A stretch of DNA of 64,000 nt from a virus. The position numbers and the translations under genes are program-made. Under the pieces are notes generated by a model. It saw nothing but the letters and a program-made list of their open reading frames with translations. It did no database searches and was not told the origin of the DNA. This document shows, piece by piece, positions 15,957-54,291 of this stretch. The stretch lies in the IMG/VR virus record IMGVR_UViG_3300045988_130116. One strand, written 5' to 3'. Each line of letters opens with the position of its first letter. Within the stretch, counting starts at the first letter, position 1.

Positions 15957-16631
15957 CTAAGCACGTCTTTTCATTTTTTCTAAAGCCCTTCTCATTATTC
16001 TACTAACCTGCATTTGACTTACCCCGATTTGTGATGCTACTTGTTGTTGGGAACGATTATTATAAAAAATTTCCTCTATAACATATCTTTCTCTTTCGCT
16101 TATAACACTAAGTAAATATTCTATATATATATTTGTATCAAAATCCTCTTCATAAGGGGGTATTAAAACATCTGCATATGTACTTCCTTCTTCGCCTTTA
16201 TCTTCAATTCTACAAGGTTTATCAAGTGAAGCAACTCCAAAAGAAATATCCCTGATCTCTTTTACCTCATCAACGCTTAAACCTAATTCCTTGGCTATTT
16301 CTTCTATCGTCATATAGGGAAGCATAGATTCTATTTTATATTTGTTTTGAGTTATCTTTCTCCCATAAAAAATTCCCCTTTTTTTACCTCTAAATTCTCT
16401 TCGTATGCCGCCCAATATATAAGGAACGGCATAAGATGAAAATTCATAACCTTTGCTTTTATCATAAGTATCAACACATTTGATTAAGTTCATAAGCCCT
16501 ATTTGTTTTACATCATCATAAGTATAATCATATGTATTAAATAGTCCCAATCTTTTATTTATTACATAGTCTACTAATTTCATATTTTTAATTATAAAAT
16601 CATCTTTTTCTTTTTTATTTTTAAAATTCAT
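15957..16631 (-). CDS. sigma-70 family RNA polymerase sigma factor (1 of 3 in window)
   Basis: Region 2-like MNLIKCVDTYDKSKGYEFSSYAVPYILGGIRREFR; region 4 HTH SQQQVASQIGVSQMQVSRIMRRALEKMK. ATG 16631 preferred (GGAGTGAGG SD); track start is 16640. Confidence 0.85.
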   Translation of the reverse strand: MNFKNKKEKDDFIIKNMKLVDYVINKRLGLFNTYDYTYDDVKQIGLMNLIKCVDTYDKSKGYEFSSYAVPYILGGIRREFRGKKRGIFYGRKITQNKYKIESMLPYMTIEEIAKELGLSVDEVKEIRDISFGVASLDKPCRIEDKGEEGSTYADVLIPPYEEDFDTNIYIEYLLSVISERERYVIEEIFYNNRSQQQVASQIGVSQMQVSRIMRRALEKMKRRA

Positions 16632-16665
16632 ATACCTCACTCCCCATAAATCTATAATCTTATTT

Positions 16666-17798: not shown

Positions 17799-17827
17799 AT
17801 TATATCATATTATCAAATTGTTGTCAA
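17799..17827 (-). promoter_or_regulatory. cassette promoter TTGACA-17-TATAAT
   Basis: Drives 17620..17772. Confidence 0.75.
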
Positions 17828-18301
17828 GTGTTTTTCATCTTTTAAAATTTTATCTCTTATTTTCATAAGCACTATACCAAGTCTATTTTCTCCAATCCAC
17901 ATACCATATTTTCGACTATAGGTCATTCCCCAAACTCTATCTGCATGGCAGTTCCCTTCCACTAACTCCCTTCCATTTGTACTTAATAATTTTGTTTTAA
18001 GAGTTTCATCTTGTATAAATTTTTGATAACATATATCAAACATAACATTGTCTTTTACCTCTTCCCAATCCTCTCTTAAAAGTAATTGTCTGCCTAGTCT
18101 TTTTGATTGAGCAGGTCTTTCCATTTCAAATTCTTTAACTCTACTCCAACATTTTTCTGCATGGTAAGGGGCTTCTGAATTTGTAAATTTATATCCTTTG
18201 TATTCAAAAGTTTTCCCTTCATAGAAATTACTTAAAAAGAGATACTCTCCTCTAAATTCCATAATAGCTGTAGCTTCGTTTTTAATTACATATTGTTTCA
18301 T
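17813..18301 (-). CDS. NADAR (YbiA/DUF1768) family protein
   Basis: 162 aa; FRGEYLFLSNFY..F.NSEAPYHAEK ... DW..VK..VM....QKF.QD..LK.KLL.T....LVEGN..D..WG; own cassette promoter. Confidence 0.8.
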   Translation of the reverse strand: MKQYVIKNEATAIMEFRGEYLFLSNFYEGKTFEYKGYKFTNSEAPYHAEKCWSRVKEFEMERPAQSKRLGRQLLLREDWEEVKDNVMFDICYQKFIQDETLKTKLLSTNGRELVEGNCHADRVWGMTYSRKYGMWIGENRLGIVLMKIRDKILKDEKHLTTI

Positions 18302-18325: not shown

Positions 18326-18354
18326 ATTATATCACATTATCAAAGTGTTGTCAA
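18326..18354 (-). promoter_or_regulatory. cassette promoter TTGACA-17-TATAAT
   Basis: Drives NADAR gene 17813..18301; overlaps the last codons of the sigma gene (..NTLIM*). Confidence 0.75.
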
Positions 18355-19045
18355 GTGTTTTTTTCATTTTTTTTAAAATTTTTCCAATATGTCTACTTAT
18401 ATATACTTGATTACAACCATACATTTCTCCTATTTCTTTTTGAGTTTTATTCTCATAAAAATATAAAGTTATTAAATCTCTTTCGTTCTTAGGCAATATA
18501 TTTAATAATTGTTTTACAATCATTTTGTTATGTAATTTTTCTATAGAATCTTCTGAATCTGCTATCATATCTCCAACAGTTGTATCTTCTTCATCACTAT
18601 TAACGGATTGATTTAAAGATGTTAACCCACCTATTAAAGAATATACCCTATTTAAATCCTGTAGTCTTACATCTAATATTTTACAGATTTCTTCGTTAGT
18701 TATATAGACATTTTTTCTTTTTAATCTATTAATTTCTCTTAATAAATTCATGTCAACTTCACTTAATCTATTCATTCTATTCCTAACAATAACTTTTTTA
18801 GAAACTTTATCTAAAGAAGTTATACCGTAAGTATAAAAACTCAAACCTCTTTCAGTATCAAATCTCTTAATACATCTTAATAAAGCTAAATTAAGTTCTT
18901 GTTCCATATCCTCTAAGTCAAAAGCTTGTATTCCTGTTTTCCTTACTCTTCTCATTTCATGTTCTACAATTACTTTATATTCATTAAATAATTCATTTAA
19001 AGCCTCATTATCGCCATGTTGTGCTTTTAAAAATAATTCCTTCAT
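18332..19045 (-). CDS. sigma-70 family RNA polymerase sigma factor (2 of 3)
   Basis: 237 aa; LALLRCIKRFDTERGLSFYTYGITSL; region 4 KTQKEIGEMYGCNQVYISRHIGKILKKMKK. Confidence 0.8.
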   Translation of the reverse strand: MKELFLKAQHGDNEALNELFNEYKVIVEHEMRRVRKTGIQAFDLEDMEQELNLALLRCIKRFDTERGLSFYTYGITSLDKVSKKVIVRNRMNRLSEVDMNLLREINRLKRKNVYITNEEICKILDVRLQDLNRVYSLIGGLTSLNQSVNSDEEDTTVGDMIADSEDSIEKLHNKMIVKQLLNILPKNERDLITLYFYENKTQKEIGEMYGCNQVYISRHIGKILKKMKKTLDNTLIM

Positions 19046-21854: not shown

Positions 21855-22853
21855 TCATCTTTGCAAAACTTTTTTATTTATTGACATAACTAATTCAGAT
21901 ATTTTTTTCTCATTTATTTTTTTAGGCAATACACTATTTTCTTTAGCATACTTAAATTTTTCTTCTAAATTATTTGCTATTTCAAATATTTCTTCGTAAG
22001 TATATTTCCCATTTCTTATATCTAACAATAATTCTTTTTCATCTTCTCTGTATGTTCTAACGCCTTTACCACTTAATATGTCTGTTCCCATTAAATATAA
22101 ACGAACTAAATGCATTGAATGTTTCAATAGATGCAATTCGTCTTTCTTTTTGTTACGATGGTTTAATTTCCCATACTGCTTAACAACCTCTCCCATTTCA
22201 TTCAACATACATTTTAAATCTCTTAACGGATAATGATTTAAATTTATGTCTATCATTATCTCTTTATCATAGTCTTCTTTTAAAGAACTATCTATATATA
22301 ATTTCAAATCCTTATCCATATGTTGGTAAGATATCTCAAATGTGTTCATTCTTTTTTGAATAGATTCTAATAAATGTTTCTCTTTTTCAGATTGAGTATA
22401 GCTATCTCTAGCCATAGCGTTTTTCAACCTTCTTAATTGATTTTGTGAATACCCTAAAAATGCACCATAAACTGCATCACTACTTAAAAATATCTCTACA
22501 TTATCTTTTAACATTTTCCCCTCTTCTGTCATTATAAAAGTGTCTTCTTCTCTTGTCCCTAATATTTCTATTACATTAGGATTAGAATTACATAATAAAT
22601 TTATCATTTGTTTCAACGGATATATTACTGTATCTGAATCTGAAGGAGTATATGGCTTATTTTTACATTTCATACTTAATATTTCATCCTTAGAATTTAA
22701 ATATATACCTCTTAAATCAATGTCAGAGCCTTCTACATTCGTTCCATAGGCATATGAGCCACCATAAGTTAGTAAACATATAGGATTTTCTTTTGTAAAC
22801 CTATCGGTTCTTATAAAGTCATACTCTTTGTTCTTTAATAATAAATTATTCAT
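21855..22853 (-). CDS. nucleotidyltransferase (Pol-beta superfamily, RlaP/PF10127-like)
   Basis: LLTYGGSYAYGTNVEGSDIDLRGIYL motif; ATG 22853 after AGGAGAGGG SD (track start 22862 is GTG). Confidence 0.65.
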   Translation of the reverse strand: MNNLLLKNKEYDFIRTDRFTKENPICLLTYGGSYAYGTNVEGSDIDLRGIYLNSKDEILSMKCKNKPYTPSDSDTVIYPLKQMINLLCNSNPNVIEILGTREEDTFIMTEEGKMLKDNVEIFLSSDAVYGAFLGYSQNQLRRLKNAMARDSYTQSEKEKHLLESIQKRMNTFEISYQHMDKDLKLYIDSSLKEDYDKEIMIDINLNHYPLRDLKCMLNEMGEVVKQYGKLNHRNKKKDELHLLKHSMHLVRLYLMGTDILSGKGVRTYREDEKELLLDIRNGKYTYEEIFEIANNLEEKFKYAKENSVLPKKINEKKISELVMSINKKVLQR

Positions 22854-22868
22854 AATTAACACCCTCTC

Positions 22869-27828: not shown

Positions 27829-27857
27829 ATAAAAAAAATCATGCATTAGGCATGATT
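27829..27857 (-). terminator. intrinsic terminator after amidoligase pair
   Basis: AATCATGC-CTAAT-GCATGATT then TTTTTTTATTTT. Confidence 0.7.
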
Positions 27858-28907
27858 AAGTAGATCAGGAATAACTAAATCTTTAAAGGTTGTATTTTCA
27901 TTTATATCTGTTTCTAATAAGGCTAAGATAAATTCTATATACTTATATATCCTATTAGCATCTAACGTCCCCTTGAACCCTCTAAATTCTATTGTATCTT
28001 TATTGGTTAGGTTTATCATTCTTCTTCTTCCGAATGATTCTGAACTAAAAATTATTTCATTGGCTATTCGTGTATCAATTTTCTTATCTTTATAAGTGTA
28101 AAATTCTGCATATGGAGTTTCCCTTCCACAGAAATCTATAACATCTTTTTTATTGTTCTCTAAGAACATTATTATTTGTGGAAGTTTCTTTACAACTTCA
28201 TCAGTTTTAGTAACATGAATGTGTAACCCACATCTATCTGATGTATACATTATCTTTTTTAATTCTGATGTTATTTGTTCTATAATTCCATTATTTTTTA
28301 TAAATTCATAGCTTAAAGGATTAGTTATTGTTTCAAACCCATCCTCTAAAGAACCGTCTCTTTCAAAGCAACATAATGTTCTTGTACTTTCAGAAAACAT
28401 TTTCTCTATACTTGGTCTTTCATCTTGGAAGGAGACTTCTTCATCTTCATTTAAAGATGAATCTAAAGAGTATTCAGATTCTATTTCTAATCCAAAGAAT
28501 ATCCCATTCAAAGGATTACCATAGAGTTTTTTAGGAAAATCATGTTGGTTATGATATCCTCCGATATTTGTGTTTTCAACATCTTTTTCCTTCATACAAT
28601 CTCTGCATAGTTCACTACAAATATCATCTTCGTAAGCTAATTCTCCACATTCACGACATATCATAAATTGGTATGATACACAATCACAAATAAGTCCTCT
28701 AGTGTTTTTTATTTTTGCCATATGGGTAAGTTTCCCTTCTTCGTACAGTTCATATCTTTTATGATATATGCACCAATATACTTTATTATCTTTTATAAGT
28801 TGTTCTAAATAATCTATACACACAGGAGAAGATGAATCCTCTCCTGCTATATAAACCTCTGTAAATACTTCTTTCCCACACTTACATTTTTTTACCATAT
28901 TAATCAC
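27846..28907 (-). CDS. amidoligase (Amidoligase_2 / GS-like COOH-NH2 ligase) with N-terminal Cys-cluster zinc ribbons
   Basis: 353 aa; GIFFGLEIESE..DGSLEDGFETITNP..YEF...RCGLHIHVTK...INLTNKDTIEFRGFKGTL; paralog of 28912..29964 and 40626..41852. Confidence 0.75.
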   Translation of the reverse strand: MINMVKKCKCGKEVFTEVYIAGEDSSSPVCIDYLEQLIKDNKVYWCIYHKRYELYEEGKLTHMAKIKNTRGLICDCVSYQFMICRECGELAYEDDICSELCRDCMKEKDVENTNIGGYHNQHDFPKKLYGNPLNGIFFGLEIESEYSLDSSLNEDEEVSFQDERPSIEKMFSESTRTLCCFERDGSLEDGFETITNPLSYEFIKNNGIIEQITSELKKIMYTSDRCGLHIHVTKTDEVVKKLPQIIMFLENNKKDVIDFCGRETPYAEFYTYKDKKIDTRIANEIIFSSESFGRRRMINLTNKDTIEFRGFKGTLDANRIYKYIEFILALLETDINENTTFKDLVIPDLLNHA

Positions 28908-28911
28908 CCCA

Positions 28912-29964
28912 CTAAAATACTAAGTTTTCTTTAAATAAATCAAACCCACTAACTTTTTCTAAGTCTTTAAATGTAGGTCTCTCTGTTATACTGAATAGAT
29001 GTTCTATATTTTCAACTAAAGCTAGGATAAATTCAATATAACCATAAACTCTTTTAGCATCTAATGTTCCTGCAAAACATCTAAATTCTATTGTGTGTTC
29101 ATTAGTAAAGTTTATACACATATGTCTTCTTCCTTGAGGTCTTAAACATATTCTCTCGGCTTCATAGGCAGTTAATAAGTTTTCTTCTGTATAGAAGTCA
29201 CACCATTCGGTAAATGAATCATAAGTTCTTCTTGAAAAATCAACTATATCATTTTTATTGCTTTCTAGGAAAGATAAGATTAACGGCATAGCTTTTACAA
29301 CTTCATCAGTTTTAGTAACATGAATGTGTAACCCACATCTATCTGATGCATACATTTCATTACCTCTAAGAGTCTCTAATATATCTTCTACTACGAAGTT
29401 ATTTCTCATAAATTCGTAACTCATAGGATAAGTTATTGTTTCAAAACCGTCATCTAAAGAACCGTCTTCTTCAAAATAAACTTTGTCTGAACCTACTTTA
29501 TCTTGTACTGATAAGGCTATAAGATTTCTATCTAAATCACAATCATAATCTCTTTCAGATTCTATTTCTAATCCAAAGAATATACCATTTGAAGGAGTTC
29601 CATGAAAATGTAATTCTTGACCATGGTGATAGTGATAATATTTAATTACTTTTCTTTCTTCGTAACAATGACTACAAAGAACATCATCTCCCATAACATA
29701 TTCGTCTCCTTTTCTCATAGGTCTACCACATTCGTCACAAGTTATATAGTTTTCATCGAATGCTTCTTGACACATTACTCTACAATTATCGTAAACATCA
29801 GTTATTTCAACTCTATTTTCTATTGGTTCGTAATCTCTATGTTCTTCACAATAGAAGTATCTTTCATCTAAACAATCTACACAGAACCATTCTCCGTTTA
29901 ATTTAACCATTTCATATCTATTTTCTTCTTTCCCACAAACTGAACACATCATTTTATTTTCCAT
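28912..29964 (-). CDS. amidoligase (Amidoligase_2-like) with N-terminal Cys-cluster zinc ribbons
   Basis: 350 aa; GIFFGLEIESE..DGSLDDGFETITYP...RCGLHIHVTK...INFTNEHTIEFRCFAGTL; cassette promoter 29996..30024. Confidence 0.75.
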   Translation of the reverse strand: MENKMMCSVCGKEENRYEMVKLNGEWFCVDCLDERYFYCEEHRDYEPIENRVEITDVYDNCRVMCQEAFDENYITCDECGRPMRKGDEYVMGDDVLCSHCYEERKVIKYYHYHHGQELHFHGTPSNGIFFGLEIESERDYDCDLDRNLIALSVQDKVGSDKVYFEEDGSLDDGFETITYPMSYEFMRNNFVVEDILETLRGNEMYASDRCGLHIHVTKTDEVVKAMPLILSFLESNKNDIVDFSRRTYDSFTEWCDFYTEENLLTAYEAERICLRPQGRRHMCINFTNEHTIEFRCFAGTLDAKRVYGYIEFILALVENIEHLFSITERPTFKDLEKVSGFDLFKENLVF

Positions 29965-29995
29965 TCTATCCTCTCCTTTTCTTTATTATACTTAT

Positions 29996-30024
29996 ATTAT
30001 ATCACATTATCAAAGTGTTGTCAA
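29996..30024 (-). promoter_or_regulatory. cassette promoter TTGACA-17-TATAAT
   Basis: Drives amidoligase pair 28912..29964 and 27846..28907. Confidence 0.75.
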
Positions 30025-30049: not shown

Positions 30050-30421
30050 CTACAAACTTAACATATCTATATCAACAGGTAAAAGTATTTTATCCATATC
30101 AAAATCATATTTAAAGAACCAACTTACATCACCTCTTGTTTTTGTTATCCTTTTATCGTTTTTATATTTTTTTATTTCTGTTGCTCTTTCTTTGAATTTA
30201 TCAGAATATGCTTGTAAATCATTTATTGTCATATTTTCAATTACATATGTATTATAGATTATTTGCTTCATTTTTATTAATTTTAAATCTTCTCCTATGT
30301 ATTCTTTAAATAATTCTTCAAAGGTATTCATTGCTTCACCTCGTATCCCGTAATTATAATCCCACTCTTTTATGAAAACATTGTTCCCTTGTTGTGTTGC
30401 ATTGTATAAAACGATTATCAT
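30050..30421 (-). CDS. KEY-G-D-P family paralog (unknown function)
   Basis: 123 aa; FEELFKEYIGEDLK ... YKNDKRITKT; own cassette promoter. Confidence 0.6.
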   Translation of the reverse strand: MIIVLYNATQQGNNVFIKEWDYNYGIRGEAMNTFEELFKEYIGEDLKLIKMKQIIYNTYVIENMTINDLQAYSDKFKERATEIKKYKNDKRITKTRGDVSWFFKYDFDMDKILLPVDIDMLSL

Positions 30422-30485: not shown

Positions 30486-30860
30486 TTATTCTTTTATTAT
30501 TACAGGTATTATTATTGGTTTTTCTCGTGCAAAATAATCTATGAAATAACCAACATTCCCCATAAATCTTTTATCTTTTTTATATTTTTTTATATTTTGT
30601 AAGTCTTCACAGAATGCTTTAGAAAGCGTTTCTATATCTTTTATTTCTTTATTTTTTATTGTATAAAAATCAGGATTTTCTTCTATTATTTCCATTTCTA
30701 AATACTCTAAATTCTTATCTCCATATTCTTTATAAAGTTTTTCTAATCTTTCTTCGTCTTTCCAATTTAAAATATGTCCGTACGCCCATTTGCTAATTAT
30801 TATTCCATCAGTAGGTAATCCTATTTTTTGAATCGTGTAATCAAAAATTTTAATTATCAT
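30486..30860 (-). CDS. KEY-G-D-P family paralog (unknown function)
   Basis: 124 aa; LEKLYKEYGDKNLE ... YKKDKRFMG; own cassette promoter. Confidence 0.6.
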   Translation of the reverse strand: MIIKIFDYTIQKIGLPTDGIIISKWAYGHILNWKDEERLEKLYKEYGDKNLEYLEMEIIEENPDFYTIKNKEIKDIETLSKAFCEDLQNIKKYKKDKRFMGNVGYFIDYFAREKPIIIPVIIKE

Positions 30861-30941: not shown

Positions 30942-31400
30942 TTATTTTTTTTCACATTCACATTTAAGATTATTCTTTAGAACATTATTAAATCTTGTTA
31001 TTTTCCTTTGTTCTCCACAAATATGCTCCAATATACAAGGCTTCATATACCCATTAAAAGACACTATCTTCCATTCATCATGGTATTTATCGGATAGTTT
31101 TTTACGAGCTTTCTCAAGCCTTATATCGTGTTTATATTGTTCTTCTTTGAGTGTTATTTTTTCTTTTAATTTAACAACTCTATCTTTTTCATCCTTGCAT
31201 ATATGGTTAACAAAGGGCAAAGTAGATATATATTTAATATTTCTCTTAAATACATACTCTTTACATTTAGGACATTTAAACCAAGCATAATAATCTTGAT
31301 TATACTTTACTTCACTAGGTTTTAAATCATTTAATTCATTATCCCACCAAGTAGTCATTGAGGGATAAACTCCCTCAAAACTATTTGAATATTCTATCAT
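30942..31400 (-). CDS. zinc-ribbon protein (single DUF4379-like unit)
   Basis: WWDNELNDLKPSEVKYNQDYYAWFKCPKCKEY. ATG 31400 after AGGTGA preferred, because the cassette -10 at 31419..31424 leaves a very short leader. Track start is 31409. Confidence 0.55.
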   Translation of the reverse strand: MIEYSNSFEGVYPSMTTWWDNELNDLKPSEVKYNQDYYAWFKCPKCKEYVFKRNIKYISTLPFVNHICKDEKDRVVKLKEKITLKEEQYKHDIRLEKARKKLSDKYHDEWKIVSFNGYMKPCILEHICGEQRKITRFNNVLKNNLKCECEKK

Positions 31401-31418
31401 TATTATCACCTCACAATT

Positions 31419-32388: not shown

Positions 32389-32739
32389 TTAACCCCTCCT
32401 AATATCATTAATAAACATTACTGTTTTTCCGTCTCTTAAACATCTATTAAAGAGACTTCTATATCTTTTTAATTTTTTGTCATTCTTGTAACGATTTAAC
32501 TCTAGTAAAGTTTTATTAACACTTTTTACATGGTTGTCAAACTCTTCTTCTGATTCTTCTATATAAAGTCTATCCTTTTCACTTCTAAGATTCAACATCT
32601 TAATCTCTCCAATATATTCTTTGCATAATTGTTCTAATGCCTTTTCTGATTCTAAACTTGTAAGTCTATTTACTCCCCATGCAGATAAATATAATTCATG
32701 TTTATCTGATATAAACACATTGTCTGTAATAAAAATCAT
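32389..32739 (-). CDS. KEY-G-D-P family paralog (unknown function)
   Basis: 116 aa; LEQLCKEYIGEIKM ... YKNDKKLKRY. Confidence 0.55.
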   Translation of the reverse strand: MIFITDNVFISDKHELYLSAWGVNRLTSLESEKALEQLCKEYIGEIKMLNLRSEKDRLYIEESEEEFDNHVKSVNKTLLELNRYKNDKKLKRYRSLFNRCLRDGKTVMFINDIRRG

Positions 32740-35156: not shown

Positions 35157-35975
35157 CTATTTTTGAAAAAAATCTAATATTTTTTGTGAAGTTTTATTTA
35201 TAATATCTAAAGAATCTTTTAACTCTTTAAGTTCTTTGCCTCTGCTCCAACTTGCAACATAACCAAAGCTATAATCGTCTGTATTAAGTCCTAACCCTCT
35301 GCAAACTATATAAGCTATACTTTCTGCTTGAACTTCTTTAGTTCTTCTATCAATCCCATCATCAAGGTTACAATGTAATATACTATGTGCTAATTCATGG
35401 ATAATTGTTTTTAGTTTGTGAATATCGTCTAAAGATTCTTTTATATGAATATCGTTCATAAGAACATCGTAATATCCATTAGTAGAACCTTCATTTAGGC
35501 TTTTATCTATTGTTATAGCAACCTCTGTATTATTTAAAGCATAATTGATTAGGGATTTAATCTCATCACTATTCTCTTTTAATTCTGTTGCTAAAGAAGG
35601 TTTATCTCCTTCAACTTGAGTGATATCAAATACATTTCCTAATTTAAAGTATAAATGATTTTTTACCACTTCTTCTCCGTCTTCTTCTACTATTGTATTA
35701 TATTTAACTGGGCAAAGTATCTTTAAGGCTTTAGCACCCTTCTTAATCTTAAACCCTAGTCTATTCCAAGTTGTAAAACTAGCAACTTGACCTGCATTAG
35801 GATTTTGTAGCATTATTAAAATTATATTTCCATAACTGTAATTATGGAATTTGCTACAGAAGTCTAGGTATTCTTGATATTTACCACTTTCAAATACCTC
35901 TTTAACTCCACTTTCTAAATCTTGCATGAATTTATTAACCTCTTGTTTCTTTTGTCCTGTTTTTTTATATCTCAT
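35157..35975 (-). CDS. ArdC-like protein (ssDNA-binding N-domain plus HExxH zincin)
   Basis: 272 aa; YSYGNIILIMLQNPNAGQVASFTTWNRLGFKIKKGAKALKI; IIHELAHSILH. Confidence 0.65.
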   Translation of the reverse strand: MRYKKTGQKKQEVNKFMQDLESGVKEVFESGKYQEYLDFCSKFHNYSYGNIILIMLQNPNAGQVASFTTWNRLGFKIKKGAKALKILCPVKYNTIVEEDGEEVVKNHLYFKLGNVFDITQVEGDKPSLATELKENSDEIKSLINYALNNTEVAITIDKSLNEGSTNGYYDVLMNDIHIKESLDDIHKLKTIIHELAHSILHCNLDDGIDRRTKEVQAESIAYIVCRGLGLNTDDYSFGYVASWSRGKELKELKDSLDIINKTSQKILDFFQK

Positions 35976-36008
35976 ATTATCAACTCCCTTATTCTTTATT
36001 ATATTTAT

Positions 36009-36037
36009 ATTATATCATATTATAAGGTTGTTGTCAA
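36009..36037 (-). promoter_or_regulatory. cassette promoter TTGACA-17-TATAAT
   Basis: Drives ArdC-like gene 35157..35975. Confidence 0.75.
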
Positions 36038-36715: not shown

Positions 36716-37303
36716 CTAAAGTGTTATTATTCTTCCAGTTGCTACTTCTTTAGCAACTAAGTTAGCAGTTCTATGACAAGTAGGACGATATCTTAAAAGT
36801 AAACTCTTGTTTAGTCTATTTCTCTTAGCTACCACCTTACCACATTCGCTACATATTATATGGTATTTATAAACTGGAGCAACAGGTACATTAACTACGC
36901 TATTATTAATAGCAACGACTGGATTAGCTTCTCTGTATTTCTTCATATAGTCTGTAGTTTTAGTTCTGTTATCTCTTACTCCATACATTCTACAAAATCT
37001 CTTCCAAGTATCATTGTGTCCTACTGGTTTTCCGCAGTATATATTTGCTAATACATGAATTACTTCATGATGAATAGTATCTATAACATCGCTTTTTTCT
37101 CCGTATTCAAGATACTTTTTATTGAACGTAAACTTTACAGGCTTCCCGTTAGCATTTAGATAACTAACTTGCCCCAAAGTTCTAGTCATTCTGGAAGATA
37201 TATTTATAGGAGTATTTTTTATATACTCTAAAATCAAGTCTCTATGTTCTTCTTTCATGCTATTTACAAAATCCACCATTTCTTTTCTTATCATTTCTAC
37301 CAT
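36716..37303 (-). CDS. SprT-like zinc metalloprotease with C-terminal zinc ribbon
   Basis: VIDTIHHEVIHVLANIY...GHNDTWKRFC; CSECGK...CH. ATG 37303 after GAGGGGG preferred; track start is 37321. Confidence 0.65.
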   Translation of the reverse strand: MVEMIRKEMVDFVNSMKEEHRDLILEYIKNTPINISSRMTRTLGQVSYLNANGKPVKFTFNKKYLEYGEKSDVIDTIHHEVIHVLANIYCGKPVGHNDTWKRFCRMYGVRDNRTKTTDYMKKYREANPVVAINNSVVNVPVAPVYKYHIICSECGKVVAKRNRLNKSLLLRYRPTCHRTANLVAKEVATGRIITL

Positions 37304-37337
37304 ATTATCAATCCCCCTCATTCTTTATTATACTTAT

Positions 37338-37366
37338 ATTATATCACATTATCAAAATGTTGTCAA
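37338..37366 (-). promoter_or_regulatory. cassette promoter TTGACA-17-TATAAT
   Basis: Drives SprT-like gene. Confidence 0.75.
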
Positions 37367-38025: not shown

Positions 38026-39036
38026 CTACCATATTTTATACACCTTTTCACCAGTCATAGTAAGTCTTCTTTCATCATAGTTAACTCTGTATAACCAACA
38101 ATCGTTATCAATAACGTATTTATCTTGATAAGTGTAAAGATACATACCGCTTACTAATTCGACAAACTCATCAGTTAATGGAGTTTTATCTGCTAAAGCC
38201 TCTATGAAGTCTAATTTATCCATACGTTTATTTTCTACAAAGAAAGCTTGGAAATAGTCTTCAAAGTTATCAAAATAAAGTGCAGGGTCATCAACTATAT
38301 CGTCATAAGAAGGTGATAAATCTTTTTTTACTTTTTCAGCAGATTTATAATTAAATTTTACATATTTTTTTGTGTTTGTGTCCCAATAATATCCGTAGTC
38401 ATCATCCCATTCATGGTCATAACTATAAGGATTAGAAAAACTTTTATTATAGTAATATTTATCCCAACTTCTAGGTTCATAAGAATCGTTAGAGAATATC
38501 CAACCTTCTTCTTTTTCTATGAAGTCTCCATATAATTCTATTTCTCCATTAGATTTAAGAATACAGAATTTACCGTTGCCCTTCATTTCTTTAGCTAAAA
38601 CATCTTTATTATTAAGTCTCCATAAGCTAAATACATCATCTAATATAAATCTTTGTGTGTCACTCATTTTTTCTTCCCAAGCATATTTACCTATAATACC
38701 ATTGTGAACGATACCTGATCCACAATTTATTTCAGTTTTTCTTAATTTTTTCAATTTGTTAGTTATTGGGAATGGATGGCAAGTTTCCTTACTTATTCCA
38801 CCACTTGTTGAAATTCTAAAGTGCATTACTAAATTCTTTTCTTCAAGATGTTTATTATCCCAAAGTTCTTCTAGTCTTTCAATATATTTGTCTACATCAA
38901 AGAACCCTTTTTCTATGTGAACCTTATTATTGTCCACAAACATGAATCCTGCTCCGTCAGAATTATGAAGGAAACAGTTTTTTACATACTCTTCATTTAA
39001 TTTATACCCTTTTTCTTTTACAGCTATTATACACAT
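38026..39036 (-). CDS. class II (Ntn) glutamine amidotransferase-like protein
   Basis: 336 aa starting MCIIAV (Cys2 nucleophile); NSDGAGFMF, HFRISTSGG..CHPF, IVHNGII; cassette promoter 39080..39108. Confidence 0.7.
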   Translation of the reverse strand: MCIIAVKEKGYKLNEEYVKNCFLHNSDGAGFMFVDNNKVHIEKGFFDVDKYIERLEELWDNKHLEEKNLVMHFRISTSGGISKETCHPFPITNKLKKLRKTEINCGSGIVHNGIIGKYAWEEKMSDTQRFILDDVFSLWRLNNKDVLAKEMKGNGKFCILKSNGEIELYGDFIEKEEGWIFSNDSYEPRSWDKYYYNKSFSNPYSYDHEWDDDYGYYWDTNTKKYVKFNYKSAEKVKKDLSPSYDDIVDDPALYFDNFEDYFQAFFVENKRMDKLDFIEALADKTPLTDEFVELVSGMYLYTYQDKYVIDNDCWLYRVNYDERRLTMTGEKVYKIW

Positions 39037-39079
39037 TCCACATCACTCCTTTTAATATCTCATTTCTTACTATACTTAT

Positions 39080-39108
39080 ATTATATCATAAATTAATACT
39101 GTTGTCAA
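39080..39108 (-). promoter_or_regulatory. cassette promoter TTGACA-17-TATAAT
   Basis: Drives GATase-like gene 38026..39036. Confidence 0.75.
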
Positions 39109-39149
39109 GTGTTTTTTGATTTTTTTTAAAACTTTTTTATTTTTTTTTA

Positions 39150-39177
39150 TTGACTTATAAATATAATATAGTATAAT
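39150..39177 (+). promoter_or_regulatory. plus-strand promoter TTGACT-16-TATAAT preceded by T-tracts
   Basis: TTGACT 39150..39155, TATAAT 39172..39177. Divergent from 39080..39108 and convergent with 39411..39439. Confidence 0.5.
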
Positions 39178-39183
39178 AATATA

Positions 39184-39308
39184 TGTAGTAAATAACAAGT
39201 GTGCTTAATGTTTCACTTAAAGATAAAATTAATATTCCTTAAATTATATATTAAATTAATGTTACACTTGTTATTTATTTATTCTATTTATTATTGTTTA
39301 TTTTTTTT
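39184..39308 (+). ncRNA. candidate small RNA (promoter, long hairpin, T-run)
   Basis: 14-bp stem 39189..39202 / 39264..39277 (TAAATAACAAGTGT / ACACTTGTTATTTA), followed by a T-rich tail ending in T8 at 39301..39308. No ORF. Confidence 0.3.
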
Positions 39309-39321
39309 GCATTATTTTTAC

Positions 39322-39397
39322 ATAAAGTCGAAGGATTTTTTGAGTCCTCCCCTCTTTGTGCAAAATAAAGTCGAAGGATTTTTAGGGTCTTACCCCC
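39322..39397. repeat. tandem direct repeat (2 units of about 33 nt)
   Basis: ATAAAGTCGAAGGATTTTTTGAGTCCTCCCCTC at 39322..39353 and ATAAAGTCGAAGGATTTTTAGGGTCTTACCCCC at 39365..39397. Confidence 0.8.
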
Positions 39398-39410
39398 TAT
39401 TCATACTTAT

Positions 39411-39439
39411 ATTGTATCATAAATTAATAGTGTTGTCAA
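39411..39439 (-). promoter_or_regulatory. orphan cassette promoter TTGACA-17-TACAAT (no ORF downstream)
   Basis: Full cassette, but the leader runs into the tandem repeats at 39322..39397 and I found no SD/ORF. Confidence 0.6.
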
Positions 39440-39721
39440 GTGTTTTTTTATATATTCCTATGATTTTTTTATTTTCTATGGAATTGAAAAAATTTTTCTA
39501 TATGATTTTTTTATTCTTATATAGGAAAATATTTTTCTTTTTAATTGAACACTTGAACATATGTTCATATATTCAATTTTCCATATGAATATATATTCAT
39601 ATATTGTCAACCTTAATAAATAAAGTAAATTTTAAAAATACTTAATTTTATTAAAGTTCTGTATTCCATTGTAAAGAGTTATAAAAAAGAATTGATATAA
39701 TATATCATTAAGATGTTAACG

Positions 39722-39760
39722 CCTCTTAAATTGGCGTATAGAAGGTATTTTAGTTATATT
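39722..39760. repeat. 39-nt dispersed repeat, copy 1 (CCTCTTAAATTGGCGTATAGAAGGT...)
   Basis: 38/39 identical to 40025..40063; the core GGCGTATAGAAGGT is also at 40220..40233. Confidence 0.8.
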
Positions 39761-40024
39761 CTATATTATTAAATTAAAACATTGAATTGACTTTATTTTT
39801 TAAATTGACTAGAATTATTTGAATTGTTTATACAAACGTGAATTTTCTGACAATTCAAAATACTCTTATTTCTTCTATATATATTATAACATTTTTGACC
39901 TAAAAAGTCAAGGAAAAGTTTTTGACACTATTCGACAATATTATACAAAAAAACAACCGTTCTATTTTAGCGTGTAAAAGGCTTTAAAAAGTTTTTAATA
40001 CTAATATATAGCTAATAGCTAAAA

Positions 40025-40063
40025 CCTCTTAAATTGGCGTATAGAAGGTGTTTTAGTTATATT
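40025..40063. repeat. 39-nt dispersed repeat, copy 2
   Basis: CCTCTTAAATTGGCGTATAGAAGGTGTTTTAGTTATATT. Confidence 0.8.
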
Positions 40064-40210
40064 GGATAATTTAATATATTGTAAAATACGATATTTTATA
40101 TATGTATATTGTATACAAATATAGGTATATGCTAAAATATCCTTATATTTCAATTTTAAAGAGTTAGTATATATTAATCATATATTTATATTAAGATGTA
40201 TTTATAAGTG

Positions 40211-40233
40211 TCTTAAAAAGGCGTATAGAAGGT
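40211..40233. repeat. dispersed repeat, copy 3 (diverged)
   Basis: TCTTAAAAAGGCGTATAGAAGGT; shares upstream ATTAAGATGT with copy 1. Confidence 0.7.
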
Positions 40234-40297
40234 TATTATTTTAAGATTTTTAAAAATATTACTGTAATTTATTCAAATTATAAAAAGTGACCTAAAA

Positions 40298-40559
40298 TGA
40301 TAATCATTATCATTTATAATATTGTATAAAAACTTGTTTAATGTATACAAGTTGTTTCTTTATAAGAGTATTTAAAATTTAAATTATTTCCGAGTAGGCC
40401 GCTTTTTTCTAATTAATAATCATTCTCAATTAATAATTATTTTCATCAGGAAGGACCGCAGTCTAATTGAAAATTATTTTCAGTTGATAATTATTATCAT
40501 AAATTCTGATCATCTGAGGGTCCGCAGTGAGAATTGATATTAATTGAGAATGATTATCA
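40298..40559. repeat. Fur-box-like 7-1-7 palindrome cluster A
   Basis: TGATAATCATTATCA 40298..40312 (perfect), TAATAATCATTCTCA 40414..40428, TGAAAATTATTTTCA 40468..40482, TGATAATTATTATCA 40485..40499 (perfect), TGAGAATGATTATCA 40545..40559. Interleaved GC cores GGACCGCAGT 40453..40462 and GGTCCGCAGT 40519..40528. Confidence 0.8.
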
Positions 40560-40575
40560 CCTCTGGTTACTTCTG

Positions 40576-40607
40576 AAAAAAAAATACCTTTGGAAAAATC
40601 CAAAGGT
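40576..40607 (-). terminator. intrinsic terminator after 40626..41852
   Basis: ACCTTTGG-ATTTTT-CCAAAGGT then ATTTTTTTTT. Confidence 0.7.
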
Positions 40608-40625
40608 TTAAAGTAAGTTATTTAA

Positions 40626-41852
40626 TTAAAAAGTGTCATTTAAATAGTGAGATAGATATATATCTAAATTTTGATATTCTTCAAGGTTATTATCAATTAT
40701 TTCTCTAATCTTATATTTATTGTTAGTTTTATTAATATCATTAAATAATAGTAATTTAATTAACTCTATATTTGCAAATATATTTCTAAAAGATAAAGTC
40801 CCCTTAAAAAGTCTAAATTCTATTGTAGAGTAGTTATTAAAATTAATTATATGATATCTATCTCCCCACTTGTTTTCTAATGCTATATTTTCCAAGTTAC
40901 CTAAACTAGTGTCATAAAATGGAGACCATCTATTAAAACGACCTATATCCCTTTGACTATAGTCAAATATAAAGTCCTTGTTTAATTCCATAAATTGAAG
41001 AATATCTATCATTCTACTTTTTACAAAATTATTTTTAGTTATATGAATATGACCTCCACAAGAAGAATCTATATCAAAGTTAGCGCATTTTAAAAATCTA
41101 GTCATTTTTGGAATTACATCGTATGCAACATTAAAGCCTAACGGTTGACTTATAAACTCTATACCATTATTTAACGACCCATCCTCTTCTATATGGAAAT
41201 ATTTTTGCCAATTAAAATTATTATTGTCACAAATTTGTATAAAATCATTTATACATTCATTTATATTTGAGCGTGTTATTACCTCTAATTCAAGTCCTAA
41301 AAATACGCCTTCTTTACTCTCTCCAATAGGACTATATTCTCCATCCCATTCATGATAACTGTATACAAAGTCGTTGCAAGTCTCACAGTAGCAATCAATA
41401 CAATAAAACTCTCCATCCCCTTCATTATAATATAAGTCTTCTATATCGATAGCCTCTTCACAGTTGTAGCAATAATTCCACGCCTCACTCCTAGAAGAAT
41501 AACAATAAGTATTGCATTCAACCTCAACAAATTCATCGGTAGAGGCTTCTAATTCGTGATGGAAATCGCAATAATCAATATAATATCTTAAAGAAAAATC
41601 GTTAATACAGTCTCTACATCCGTCGAATATATTTATATAGATATTGTCTTCTAATACATGGATTTCTTCTATATCGTCTATTATTTCAACGTCGTTGATA
41701 TCGTCTTTATTATCTAATTCATTGATAGAGTCCATTATATTCTCCATATAAGGACAAGTATTACAAGAACAACTACCTTTTAAATTTTTCATAAATTCAA
41801 CGCTAAAATTATTATTTTCTAATACCTCAACTAATAAACTATTATTTAACAT
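40626..41852 (-). CDS. amidoligase (Amidoligase_2-like), third paralog, long Cys-rich N-terminus
   Basis: 408 aa; GVFLGLELEV...DGSLNNGIEFISQP...CGGHIHITK...INFNNYSTIEFRLFKGTL. Confidence 0.7.
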   Translation of the reverse strand: MLNNSLLVEVLENNNFSVEFMKNLKGSCSCNTCPYMENIMDSINELDNKDDINDVEIIDDIEEIHVLEDNIYINIFDGCRDCINDFSLRYYIDYCDFHHELEASTDEFVEVECNTYCYSSRSEAWNYCYNCEEAIDIEDLYYNEGDGEFYCIDCYCETCNDFVYSYHEWDGEYSPIGESKEGVFLGLELEVITRSNINECINDFIQICDNNNFNWQKYFHIEEDGSLNNGIEFISQPLGFNVAYDVIPKMTRFLKCANFDIDSSCGGHIHITKNNFVKSRMIDILQFMELNKDFIFDYSQRDIGRFNRWSPFYDTSLGNLENIALENKWGDRYHIINFNNYSTIEFRLFKGTLSFRNIFANIELIKLLLFNDINKTNNKYKIREIIDNNLEEYQNLDIYLSHYLNDTF

Positions 41853-41917
41853 ATAATTTTACCTCCTAATTATTTATTATAGTTAGGGAATTTTTAAAGG
41901 TATTCCCTAAAAACCTT
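41850..41917 (-). promoter_or_regulatory. duplicated 5' region with hairpin, copy 1 (upstream of 40626..41852)
   Basis: Minus strand AGGTTTTTAGGGAATACCTTTAAAAATTCCCTAACTATAATAAATAATTAGGAGGTAAAATTATATG; 8-9 bp stem at 41883..41910. Confidence 0.6.
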
Positions 41918-42564: not shown

Positions 42565-42627
42565 ATAATTTTACCTCCTAATTGTTTTATAGTTAGGGAA
42601 TTTATAAAGGTATTCCCTAAAAACCTA
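42562..42627 (-). promoter_or_regulatory. duplicated 5' region with hairpin, copy 2 (upstream of 41926..42564)
   Basis: About 90 percent identical to copy 1 by eye; stem at 42593..42620. Confidence 0.6.
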
Positions 42628-43574: not shown

Positions 43575-44623
43575 TTTATTTCCTCCTTATTATTTATTTT
43601 ACTTATTCACTTTTATAAAATTATTGGTCACTAGAATTGTAACCGATATAATTAAGATTTTTAAAGAATGGATTTTTTAATATTATTGTCAACTCTTATT
43701 ATGTTATCTTATTATGTATTATTTAATTGTTAATATAATAGTAACACAAAAAAGTATAAAATACAACTTACAATTGATACAACTTTTTAAAAATGTTATT
43801 TACATATGATATTAAAATAAGATGGAAATTAATATTTGTATATGAAAAATATCCAAAAACTAGCACGTTTTTTTGTTAGGCAATTTATAAAAAAATTATT
43901 TACAAGTGATAAATAAAAATCAAATAAATTTTATCAAATAGTAAGTATTTTTTTATAATGCTTTACAAAAATTTACCATGATTTCTGAAAAATTTATATT
44001 TTTAAAATATATTGTTTATCAAAAATCACTTGTTAGTTTACAAGTGTTTAGATTTTTTACTCTATTTTTATATTTGTAAATTAAAAATAATAAAAATTTT
44101 TACATTATAATTATTATAGTTATTTTTAGAAAAATATAAAAAAAAATTATTTTATTTGTAAGTGTTTTATAGTATAATATTGAATAATTGTAAATTATAC
44201 CTATCTTTATATATATAAATAAAAAGATGTTAGAATAAAGATAGTTAAAAAGGTCATGATTTTATTAATTATCGTATTTCATTAGCTCAAATGTATAACG
44301 TTATAAGGCTTTTGGTGTGCTATCGTTCTGAATAACACGAACTATTATTTGTTATAATTCGGAAATGTATGTATCAAGGTAATTTACGACTTTATTCAAC
44401 ACTAATCGACGCTTCTGTACGCCCTTGTGAGGCGTTCTAAAAAGTTGCCTTTATATTCTATCGTACGATTTTAAAAGTACATTTAACCTTATGAACGCCT
44501 ATATAAGAATAGGCAAGAATAAATTAACAAGTAACAACAAGAATATGTTGCAAGTTGTTAATTATAACTTGCAATTATTATACAATTTATTTCATAGTTA
44601 GATAGTAGGAAATCAGGAAGAAT

Positions 44624-44930
44624 GTAAATGATAATGGCTCTCAACTGCGGTCCATGAATAGTTGAGAATGATTATCGCCACAGACTGCGGTCCATGAATA
44701 AGCGTAAATGAAATCCATTATCAACTGATATTGTATTCTCAATTGAGAATGATTATCGAATGATTCAAAGTACCAACTTACAATTGTATACCACTATACA
44801 AGTTTTTGGAATTACTATAATTCCTATTAAAATAGTATGATATTATCATAATGATAATGATTAATGTATACAATGTAAATGATAATCGTTATCGACTGCG
44901 GTCCATGAGTAGGTGAGAATGGTTATCGAA
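44624..44930. repeat. composite repeat cluster B: [TGATAAT-type box][ACTGCGGTCCATGArTA][TGAGAATGrTTATCG]
   Basis: Boxes at 44629..44643, 44663..44677, 44709..44723, 44744..44758, 44852..44866, 44880..44894 and 44914..44928. ACTGCGGTCCATGA cores at 44644..44660, 44684..44700 and 44895..44911. Confidence 0.8.
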
Positions 44931-45180
44931 TGGTAAAAAGTAACAACTTGTATACAAAATACAATATGTTTATATTTGTTTTTGTATACACTACAATTCA
45001 TAGTGGAATAGCAGAGAATAGAATAAGTATTAATTGATAATGTTTCTTAAATAAGTTAATGTTTTAATTAATAATAATAATAGAATAATAATAATATTAT
45101 TTTGATAATCAAAATATTTGATAATCATAACATTATCAATATGATAACTAAATTATACAATATACATAATTGCCAACTTG

Positions 45181-45460
45181 TTTTATTAATACAATATGTT
45201 TATATATACTATTGTATACATTAATATTATAGTATGTTATATTGTCTTATATATATTATAACGTACTGTACTATTGTATTGTATAGTATAGTATACGATA
45301 TATTATGTATATATGTTATACTATTATGTATTATATTTGTATATGTATTATTATATACGTATTGCATATGTATATATAGTATGTATTGATGTATTATATA
45401 TGATGTATTATTGTATTGCATTGTTATATATAGTATGTATTATATAGGTATATATGTTAT
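45181..45460. repeat. GTATA/TATAC-rich low-complexity tract
   Basis: About 280 nt built almost only of T, A and GTAT/ATAC words. The ORF called here is a compositional artefact. Confidence 0.7.
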
Positions 45461-45496
45461 ACCAATGCATTGGTCACTTGATAGGTATAGCAAAGG

Positions 45497-45906
45497 TGAG
45501 AACGATTATCGATTGATAGCCTTGCATTTTTTGGTTAACCATTTTTGTATTTTGGGTTAACGTATTTTTTTATTGGAATGTATGAATAATTGAATATGTT
45601 TTTATATGAATATGTATTCATGTATTTGGGGATTTTTGGGTTGAATAAGTTCCTTCATTTTTACACGACAAAAAAATTTTTTCCTTCATTGACTAATCAT
45701 TCGATAATCATTCTCACCCTCATTTAATTAAGCTTCTTATATGAATTTGATAATCATAATCAACTACAATTTTTTTCTTTATATATCAAATATTTTTCCA
45801 TTCAAATATTTTGATTATCAAAGTATTTAATGTCGGATAATAGTATTGTTATAGGTCATTAATAGGGGGGATGTTTCATAATACTTGATAATGATAATCA
45901 TTCTGC
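45497..45906. repeat. Fur-box-like cluster C
   Basis: TGAGAACGATTATCG 45497..45511; CGATAATCATTCTCA 45702..45716 (inverted orientation); TGATAATCATAATCA 45748..45762; GATAATGATAATCATTCTG 45887..45905 (17/19 to the classical Fur box), followed by CTGCGGCCCC. Confidence 0.75.
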
Positions 45907-45947
45907 GGCCCCTAGCTACTACACTCAAGCACCATTTTTTCTCAAAG

Positions 45948-46056
45948 CACCATTTTTCACACCATTTTCCCATTATCTCCAATCAATCCTTCCACCTCCA
46001 CAACACCCCAAATATCCCTTTTTCAACCCTTCATATCTCATTAAAAACAATTAATT
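45948..46056 (+). other. 109-nt G-free, C-rich tract with 3x CACCATTTT
   Basis: Counted by eye: no G between 45948 and 46056. Contains GCACCATTTTTT, GCACCATTTTT, ACACCATTTT and CCACCTCCAC. Confidence 0.7.
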
Positions 46057-46344
46057 GTATTAAACGAAAGAATAACAACAGTAATTATATATAGTTCCCA
46101 AATATAGGTAAATACAATAAAACAACCTTTTACATATACATAACATTGTATACAATAAAAGATTAAAGTCTCAATAAACACAACAAAAATGATATTAAAG
46201 GTAGGGGAGGGGTGGTTTGCATACTTTTTCTAAAGTTGAATAATAATGACCTTCTGTGTGCCATTTTAAGAAGATAAAATCAATAAGTTAAGTATTTGTA
46301 TTAAGAGTATTTTTTAGGTATATTAGAGAGGAAATATAAAAGGG

Positions 46345-46380
46345 CAAAAAAAAAGAGGAAAACATTTTCAGTTCTCCTCT
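46345..46380 (-). terminator. intrinsic terminator ending the 51.9->46.4 kb leftward block
   Basis: AGAGGAGAA-CTGAAAATG-TTTTCCTCT then TTTTTTTTGCCC. Confidence 0.65.
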
Positions 46381-46387
46381 GGAATAT

Positions 46388-54224: not shown

Positions 54225-54291
54225 GGATATATAGTTTAACAGGCAAAATACTTACCGGAAAAGAGTTATAGGTTCGAGTCCTATTATATCC
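54225..54291 (+). ncRNA. tRNA-like element 1 (non-canonical; anticodon arm cannot be folded canonically)
   Basis: Hand fold: 7-bp acceptor GGATATA/TATATCC, T arm ATAGG-TTCGAGT-CCTAT, D arm GTTT-AACAGGCA-AAAT. Only 67 nt, and the central 34 nt is too short for a standard anticodon arm plus variable loop. Confidence 0.5.

Follow-up and report, generated by a model that had tools for sequence, protein, structure and literature searches.

How one phage might use several predicted ligases of a single family together with one predicted glutaminase is the question raised by a 64,000-nucleotide stretch of viral DNA (IMG/VR virus record IMGVR_UViG_3300045988_130116), the whole of which is called here the window. 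Three paralogous genes in the window encode amidoligases, designated A1, A2, and A3, in which a cysteine-rich N-terminal region precedes a ligase domain like that of glutamine synthetase (GS), and another gene encodes a protein resembling the class-II, or N-terminal nucleophile (Ntn), glutamine amidotransferases (GATs). Among the relatives of these enzymes, the pairing of ligase and GAT is near-obligate. The best explanation of the pair, to which a rough probability of 0.45 may be assigned, is a glutamine-dependent amidotransferase built on the GS fold, in which ammonia supplied by the GAT would be used to amidate carboxylates on macromolecular targets chosen by the zinc ribbons of the N-terminal region.

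Membership of the ligases in a known family can be established from several lines of evidence. The preliminary description of this DNA, made from the letters alone, had recognized an amidoligase pattern of four motifs in two adjoining genes at 27846-29964 and a third paralog at 40626-41852. The two adjoining open reading frames (ORFs) are indeed found at these coordinates on the minus strand, and all four motifs can be read in both translations: GIFFGLEIESE and RCGLHIHVTK are common to A1 and A2, while the second and fourth motifs read DGSLDDGFETITYP and INFTNEHTIEFRCFAGTL in A2 and DGSLEDGFETITNP and INLTNKDTIEFRGFKGTL in A1. Over their full length the two proteins share 43% identity (E 1e-70), and A3 is 31% identical to A2 (E 3e-30). 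As a GGGGTG ribosome-binding site precedes the ATG at 28898, and as the ortholog P0013 begins MVKKCK, translation of A1 probably starts at this codon to give a protein of 350 amino acids (aa). Profile searches bear out the family assignment, with all three paralogs scoring above the Pfam gathering score of 22 bits for PF12224 (Amidoligase_2), at 32.3 bits for A1, 30.1 for A2, and 38.5 for A3, and with all three matching PHROG amidoligase families (PHROG 2443 is named “amidoligase”). PADLOC, with its models for components of anti-phage defense systems, gave no match for any of five proteins submitted, and NCBIfam gave no model for the ligases.

Comparison of structural models with GS and glutamate-cysteine ligase (GCL), which the preliminary description had proposed as a check, places A2 in the fold class shared by GS, YbdK, and GCL. 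The AlphaFold (AF2) model of A2 has a predicted local distance difference test (pLDDT) score of 93.6 and a predicted template modeling (pTM) score of 0.83, and its Foldseek matches are to YbdK (E 2e-6), GS (4e-4), and GCL (5e-4), with probabilities of 0.98-1.00 and a TM score of only ~0.37. At the level of sequence, the relationship is far more distant. Escherichia coli YbdK carries, by eye, a similar series of motifs (GIELE, ELAT, THP, GQHVHV, and TVEVR), but alignment of the family profile with YbdK by hhalign gave a probability of 4.8%, which is not significant, with only the GxHxHV segment aligned; likewise, a profile search of the PDB gave no match for the ligase domain.

The residues expected of an active site are nonetheless intact. 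In an alignment of 30 homologs, the invariant positions (A2 numbering) are G131, E133, E135, D167, G168, S169, G173, E175, P180, G211, H213, H215, R246, R280, N285, T291, E293, F294, and R295, and each of these is kept in A1, A2, A3, their orthologs, and the distant relatives checked. A second check named in the preliminary description, for the loss of active-site residues, finds every invariant acidic, histidine, and arginine position present in all three copies. The ExE pair, E175, the HxH pair, and the ExR pair lie on beta strands in the A2 model. By analogy with GS, the conserved ExE, E, HxH, R, and ExR residues would bind metal and phosphate, in a pattern that presumably corresponds to Glu129/131, His269/271, and Glu357/Arg359 of that enzyme. 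The three paralogs are best explained as catalytically competent carboxylate-amine or carboxylate-ammonia ligases that would depend on ATP.

A GAT gene had also been proposed at 38026-39036, and the protein encoded there does start with Met-Cys and has a class-II GAT fold. Its sequence begins MCIIAV, with Cys2 invariant in 28 sequences, and the other invariant residues are His72-x-Arg74, Thr77, His111-Asn112-Gly113, and Asp126-Thr127; the protein thus has Cys2 as its nucleophile, an HxRxxT motif, Asn-Gly as the oxyanion pair, and the Asp of an SDT motif. The N-terminal domain is modeled by AF2 with pLDDT >90 and matches the glutaminase domains of GlmS, GFAT, and PurF (E 1e-5, probability 1.00). 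The best Pfam score falls below the cut-off (GATase_4, 16.2 versus 23 bits), so that the assignment rests on conserved residues, relatives, and fold. A relative that does pass this threshold (P0233, 27.5 bits) is encoded directly after two tandem amidoligases in a common gut phage of 67-76 kb. Altogether, 1,914 relatives of the window GAT share Cys2, HxRxxT, HNG, and SDT. The GATase_6/7 proteins that accompany more distant ligases have Cys2, HxRxxT, and HNG in common with it in a joint alignment but read P[K/E]T rather than SDT; BLASTP similarity between the two groups is not significant, and they are joined only through the invariant residues of the joint alignment, a joint hidden Markov model (HMM), and the fold.

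Relatives of the ligases are abundant. A word-indexed search returned 775, most of them 360-370 aa long and covering ~90% of A2, and an exhaustive profile search returned 23,816 representatives at 50% clustering, 6,193 of them with E <=1e-30. Almost all matches in genomes come from metagenome-assembled genomes of Clostridia, and some relatives from Oscillospiraceae and other Bacillota are named “amidoligase family protein” by NCBI. The fusion of zinc ribbons to an amidoligase domain is a widespread architecture and no peculiarity of the window phage.

The association of phage amidoligases with class-II GATs, which the preliminary description had cited as a published prediction, proves tighter than could be told from one stretch of DNA. 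For a census of pairing, ORFs were called in 160 related loci (80 viral, 80 genomic) and searched with HMMs built from our own alignments; as the loci are those that best match A2, the census represents the zinc-ribbon subfamily and not PF12224 as a whole. A GAT ORF lies on the same strand at a distance of <=500 nt in 141 loci, and adjacent to the ligase in 131 of the 143 loci that are evaluable (those with at least 1.5 kb downstream). In 138 of these 141 loci the GAT follows the ligase, and the median distance between the two genes is 1-3 nt. As a rule there is one ligase to a GAT (a single ligase in 151 of the 160 loci, tandem ligases in 4), and the same order of ligase and then GAT is found in Mycobacterium phage Marvin (gp105, then gp106) and in OM43 phages.

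For such a translationally coupled pair, the simplest reading is a two-subunit enzyme built on a GS-type synthetase. The GAT would hydrolyze glutamine and supply ammonia, and the ligase would phosphorylate a carboxylate of its target with ATP to allow formation of the amide; in the window phage, the three ligases would differ in target specificity and draw on one GAT. Amidation by glutamine-derived ammonia is favored over attachment of a peptide or amino-acid tag. Several considerations weigh against this view of the pair as a glutamine-dependent amidotransferase. To our knowledge, the nitrogen donor of GS-fold enzymes is normally free ammonia or an amine, and we know of no docking of a GAT onto one. 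We infer both the complex between ligase and GAT and the transfer of ammonia, and no fusion of the two was found among ten long family members. The GAT of the window itself adjoins no ligase, with A3 lying 1.6 kb and A2-A1 8 kb away, and the early expression proposed below is read solely from promoter sequence. Moreover, the glutamine-binding residues of the GAT would suit a gamma-glutamyl amide equally well, so that the protein could be a hydrolase, and published annotations of other phages pair an amidoligase with a gamma-glutamyl cyclotransferase, which points to gamma-glutamyl chemistry.

These last observations lead to the main rival explanation, in which the ligase would join the gamma-carboxyl of glutamate (or another amino acid) to an amine of a metabolite, polyamine, or protein, and the GAT-like protein would remove or process the conjugate. 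Analogues exist in EgtA with EgtC in ergothioneine synthesis and PuuA with PuuD in putrescine use, and in the YbdK/GCL-type and GS-like gamma-glutamyl-amine synthetases. That YbdK is the closest fold match, followed by the GCLs, is consistent with such chemistry, as is the nearest Pfam family of the window GAT, GATase_4, which we take to include EgtC and YafJ. One phage match to the GAT is itself annotated as a gamma-glutamyl cyclotransferase. However, to make and break one bond from a coupled operon would serve no purpose unless other steps came between, and no genes for such steps are conserved nearby; among the window ORFs of at least 150 aa there is no gamma-glutamyl cyclotransferase or ATP-grasp enzyme (smaller ORFs were scanned in part). 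Further, the partner GATs encoded on Firmicutes elements best match the glutaminase domains of the true amidotransferases GlmS, PurF, and AsnB. Gamma-glutamyl conjugation is regarded as rather unlikely.

What the enzyme might act on is a question for the N-terminal region, in which the preliminary description had noted an abundance of CxxC pairs. These resolve into three ribbons of the Cys4 type per protein, with ten cysteine positions invariant or nearly so across the 30 homologs. The pattern is one of three CxxC...CxxC units within ~105 residues, the second unit reading CxxH in the clade of A1, A2, and A3; in A2, CxxC occurs at residues 7, 28, 76, and 97 and CxxH at residue 39. The first ribbon of A1 is degenerate, with CxC in place of CxxC and Cys31 replaced by Tyr, a substitution (C31Y) limited to the window copy. 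Weak similarities connect the module to LIM domains: A2 scores 18.4 bits against the LIM family (PF00412), for which the threshold is 22.9, with A1 and A3 unmatched; a PDB profile search with the ligase gave weak matches of the N-terminus to LIM (E 0.007) and RING domains; and fold-level matches of the A2 N-terminus include the LIM proteins LMO2 and PINCH. This is resemblance, not membership. The module is not fixed across the family, as two of ten longer members carry C-terminal leucine-rich repeats (LRRs) of the BspA type (LRR_5) and one carries extra double zinc ribbons. Such variable zinc-ribbon and LRR modules argue for macromolecular targets, and the zinc-ribbon module most likely picks the target.

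Modules of this protein-interaction type (LIM-like here, LRR in relatives) would equally suit a protein-tagging system similar to that of PafA, which like Dop is a GS-fold enzyme. A carboxylate of a small phage protein or peptide would then be joined to lysines of a target, with the ribbons holding tag or target and the GAT-like hydrolase either preparing the tag (deamidation of a terminal Gln is one example) or removing it. Candidates for a tag might be sought in a four-member family of small proteins that flanks the tandem ligases, two of the four ending in Glu, or in the DUF960-like small protein found directly upstream of the ligase in 47 of the 160 loci. But the four small proteins have no conserved C-terminus and no Pfam or PHROG match, and neither they nor DUF960 are universal beside the pair; it is the GAT that is universal there, and known tagging systems make no use of such a protein. 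Likewise, there is no Pup_ligase match at E up to 0.01, and PafA and Dop are absent among the fold matches listed. These points make tagging decidedly improbable.

Zinc ribbons also often bind nucleic acids, and a further explanation has the pair amidating or aminoacylating either a peptidoglycan or teichoic-acid precursor or a carboxylated base of DNA or tRNA, for superinfection exclusion or nucleic-acid protection. DNA methylases and nucleotide enzymes are plentiful in the phage, and there is a weak fold match to the TiaS-tRNA complex, but this match (rank 24, probability 0.69) is not significant, and no known hypermodification genes are adjacent. As to the envelope, passages in the secondary literature credit the 2009 analysis discussed below with the proposal that the amidoligase of phage phiEco32 modifies a cell-wall receptor. 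Against a target there, the translations have no obvious hydrophobic leader, judged by eye without a predictor, and no glycosyl- or Mur-type partner is conserved near the pair. Modification of envelope or nucleic acid is regarded as very improbable.

How the three ligases of the window arose bears on whether all of them are in use. The window phage is atypical: its three ligases stem from a lineage-specific expansion, its one GAT is not linked to them, and it has a further copy consisting only of an N-terminus. In a neighbor-joining tree of the ligase domain, A1, A2, and A3 form one clade with A3 basal, and the tandem ligases of the 67-76 kb gut phage represent an independent duplication, in which the second ligase retains the last zinc ribbon alone. 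A3 followed by GAT is the canonical order, but 1.6 kb of ORF-free DNA and the A3 terminator intervene. On our reading, A3-then-GAT is the ancestral pair, and A2-A1 a derivative that was dispersed and then duplicated 8 kb away. The order A3, gap, GAT, SprT, ArdC, further genes, integrase, A2, A1 is kept in 143-kb relatives, and one relative (L013) has an A3 ortholog that is 53% identical with a like layout. The copy without a ligase domain, N4, is a paralog of the A3 N-terminus (BLASTP E 1e-10 over residues 1-118) that gave no Pfam or PHROG match and is absent from L013; it is a recent partial duplication that includes the upstream control element of A3.

Loss of one zinc ligand in A1, the truncation of N4 and its absence from one relative, and the norm of one ligase per GAT might together be taken to mean that the extra copies are redundant or decaying and that only A3, beside the GAT, is functional. 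This is scarcely credible: no catalytic residue is missing from A1 or A2, the two are conserved together in related phages of 130-143 kb (43-99% identity), they have a strong promoter and a terminator of their own, and tandem duplication has occurred independently in another phage. The preliminary description had supposed instead that three diverged copies act on three different acceptors. Differences between A1 and A2 that are fixed within each ortholog group fall mainly in residues 246-290 (14 of 45 positions) and in ribbons 1 and 2 rather than in the catalytic core, with none in residues 166-210, a pattern that fits different specificities on a common catalytic core and lends mild support to that idea.

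The regulatory sequences of the four genes suggest when these enzymes might be made. An intergenic element of ~70 nt is present in 30 copies, all on the minus strand between 2,456 and 39,439 of the window, and consists of a near-perfect extended -10 promoter of the sigma-70/sigma-A type (TTGACAAYA-N11-TGATAYAATATA) with a strong ribosome-binding site. It precedes the bicistronic operon formed by A2 and A1, in which the promoter matches the consensus at 12 of 12 positions, as well as the genes for the GAT, the SprT-like protein, the ArdC-N/M78 protein, and a primase (example sites are 37335-37366 and 36006-36037). Thirty promoter copies on one strand make up a putative large early regulon. Only A1 and A2 are in tandem, and A3 stands under separate regulation: a palindrome, TTAGGGAAT-N10-ATTCCCTAA, which occurs in just two copies in the window, one ahead of A3 and one ahead of N4, may serve as the operator, or as an alternative promoter, of a separate regulatory class. 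A2-A1 and the GAT are probably early genes read by host RNA polymerase, with A3 in another class; A2-A1 and the GAT would be expressed immediately on infection from strong host-type promoters and A3 controlled separately.

Early promoters, together with neighboring genes of the anti-restriction type (ArdC-N/M78, SprT), suggest a host-directed or counter-defense role for the ligase-GAT system. The ArdC-N/M78 and SprT genes, whose synteny is kept in relatives, lie on the stretch from the GAT to A2-A1. At its most ambitious, the proposal of a glutamine-dependent amidotransferase can be extended to an undescribed class of such enzymes, one with GS-fold carboxylate activation in place of a PP-loop, Mur-ligase, or ATP-grasp subunit, amidation of side-chain or C-terminal carboxylates of host proteins (Glu to Gln or Asp to Asn), swappable zinc-ribbon or LRR targeting, use by phages and integrative elements within the first minutes of entry to disable host factors or defense proteins, and, in the window phage, three specificities fed by one glutaminase; taken with all of these particulars, it is quite unlikely.

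Comparison with known systems illustrates both what is familiar and what would be unusual in this arrangement. Sets of COOH-NH2 ligases and class-II GATs were reportedly predicted by Iyer, Abhiman, Burroughs, and Aravind (Mol Biosyst, 2009), and the window resembles these sets in that the ligases pass the family threshold and match PHROG families and a class-II GAT accompanies them; it differs in having three ligases per unlinked GAT and an N-terminus-only copy. The YbdK/GCS2 proteins and GCLs (PDB 1r8g, 1tt4, 2gwc, 3ln6) are the best fold matches and share the elements GxExE, ExxT, TxP, GxHxHV, and TxExR, but there is no significant sequence similarity, the core of the phage proteins is smaller and preceded by zinc ribbons, and YbdK has no GAT partner. 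GS (PDB 8fbp, 5dm3, 4bax) has its fold class in common with the A2 model, whereas GS takes free ammonia and assembles into dodecamers, its active sites lying where subunits meet, and none of the three window ligases gives a Gln-synt_C match in Pfam. In AsnB and in MurT/GatD, a glutaminase feeds an ATP-dependent partner that activates a carboxylate, and the window GAT has the glutaminase-domain fold and catalytic residues of GlmS and PurF; the synthetase of the window would be of the GS fold, in contrast to the PP-loop (AsnB) and Mur-ligase (MurT) types, and GatD is a class-I GAT whereas that of the window is class-II. We know of no described combination of a GS-fold synthetase with a class-II GAT. 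LIM domains (PINCH, LMO2, FHL2) are likewise tandem cysteine-rich zinc modules of similar size with weak profile and fold matches to the ribbons, but they are built as a two-finger C2HC-C4 unit rather than three CxxC...CxxC ribbons, and the bacterial and phage context and the sub-threshold score also set the ribbons apart.

The zinc-ribbon amidoligase and class-II GAT pair is among the larger uncharacterized enzyme systems carried on phages and integrative elements of gut Firmicutes, and the window set is an expanded member of a known family for which there is only a prediction, now 15 years old. Consistent with what the preliminary description had supposed, the literature searched, thin in its coverage of subscription journals, yielded only annotations and citations of the 2009 prediction and gave no substrate, product, or structure for the family. 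A paper on polyvalent proteins has no mention of amidoligase or GAT domains, and another from 2026, on Klebsiella, does mention amidoligases, but the enzyme it deals with is of the ATP-grasp type and has no bearing here. To the earlier prediction, the present analysis adds the near-obligate coupling to a GAT, the size of the family, intact sites in three copies, an expansion with a shared GAT, and the structure of operon and promoters. Because the genes of the pair abut or overlap and are nearly always found together, a GS-fold glutamine-dependent amidotransferase becomes a concrete and testable hypothesis. The window phage offers three diverged ligases, one glutaminase, clean promoters, and a defined early operon, with Clostridioides difficile phages as its closest isolated relatives, so that a three-way comparison of specificity is possible in one system. 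While unsurprising to a specialist, this is a well-defined entry point to a long-standing open question, and if the targets were host proteins or defense components, the chemistry would be a new post-translational means of takeover. The features discussed here and below are collected in the table.

Table. Amidoligases, GAT, regulatory elements, and other features of the window, with a tandem locus from another phage
Feature	Position	Strand	Description
Amidoligase A1	27846-28898 (longest ORF to 28907, 353 aa)	-	Degenerate first ribbon, two more ribbons, GS-like ligase domain
Amidoligase A2, 350 aa	28912-29964	-	Three ribbons (residues 1-105), linker, GS-like ligase domain ~122-325
Amidoligase A3, 408 aa	40626-41852	-	PF12224 match; basal paralog upstream of GAT
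N4, 212 aa	41926-42564	-	Cys-rich paralog of A3 N-terminus without ligase domain
Class-II (Ntn) GAT-like protein	38026-39036	-	Glutaminase 1-190, disordered Tyr/Asp-rich linker 191-212, beta-rich C-terminal domain
A2-A1 operon promoter	29993-30024	-	TTGACA, 17-nt spacer, TG-extended TATAAT, then AAGGAGAGG ribosome-binding site
GAT promoter	39077-39108	-	Same conserved early type as A2-A1 promoter
Intrinsic terminator of A2-A1 operon	27837-27857	-	From terminator scan; A1 stop codon in hairpin loop
Intrinsic terminator after A3	40586-40607	-	From terminator scan
Perfect palindrome, 9-nt arms	41883-41910	.	TTAGGGAAT-N10-ATTCCCTAA, then CTATAAT; upstream of A3
Second palindromic element	42593-42620	.	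Upstream of N4
ArdC-N fused to M78/IrrE-type peptidase; SprT-like protein	35157-35975; 36716-37321	-	Own early-type promoter each
Small-protein family, four paralogs, 116-127 aa	27374-27757, 30050-30421, 30486-30860, 32389-32739	-	KEYIGE and invariant YKxDK(R)
Three sigma-70-family factors	15957-16640, 18332-19045, 51196-51882	-	
NADAR domain protein; nucleoside 2-deoxyribosyltransferase-like protein	17813-18301; 46860-47399	-; -	Possible ADP-ribose or nucleotide conflict functions
Three DUF4379 treble-clef zinc-finger proteins	1056-2039, 6301-7527, 30942-31409	-	Second expanded zinc-finger family in the window
RNA-repair-like gene set	21855-22862, 54725-56200, 56483-57646, 54225-54681	-, +, +, +	
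Independent tandem amidoligases, 527 and 498 aa, then window-family GAT	L007 4660-8957; also L008, L009		Abundant 67-76 kb gut phage

The window comes from a large Clostridia phage similar to phiCD211. Its genes include those for a large terminase, a protease of the ClpP type, DNA methylases, ThyX, RNase H, an ERF recombinase, and the three sigma factors; the terminase is 53% identical to that of the 131-kb C. difficile phages phiCD211 and phiCDIF1296T. The GC content is ~27% across the window, and from 0.5 to 52 kb almost every long ORF is on the minus strand. Near-identical relatives are found in IMG/VR as contigs of 132-141 kb with 98-99% identity (L016 and L017), and a nucleotide search of isolated phages with the tandem A2-A1 pair gave zero matches. 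The four-member family of small proteins borders both the tandem amidoligases and the integrase and is conserved in a 142-kb relative (L001).

The region between A3 and the GAT (39040-40625) contains no convincing ORF and is about 71% identical in L013. It holds two orphan promoters of the early type, at 39408-39439 and ~39883-39911, with a direct repeat, AAAAATCCTTCGACTTTAT, just after the first, and may be a small RNA or regulatory region. A second ORF-free stretch, AT-rich and extending over ~43600-46300, coincides with a change of sign in GC skew, and its segments 45829-46388 and 44353-44597 are conserved in L013 at about 73% identity; this stretch is a possible origin or regulatory region. 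Rfam scans of both stretches gave zero matches.

Among the 160 census loci (L016-L175), three other neighbors of the ligase-GAT pair recur: the DUF960-like protein already mentioned, of ~95 aa, a small serine recombinase directly downstream of the pair in 57 loci, and a DUF3846-like protein of ~128 aa near the pair in 16 loci, with examples at L126 9701-9988, L109 12221-12790, and L049 2007-2390. DUF3846 is also found fused to the ligase in P0053.

Elsewhere in the window, a set of genes reminiscent of RNA repair comprises RlaP (a nucleotidyltransferase of the polymerase-beta family), a DUF2828/DUF7788 protein, a calcineurin-like phosphoesterase, and three tRNA genes, two of which are called by ARAGORN as Leu-TAA and Thr-TGT. 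The sigma factors, together with the NADAR and deoxyribosyltransferase-like proteins, suggest transcription control in several stages and functions in ADP-ribose or nucleotide conflict.

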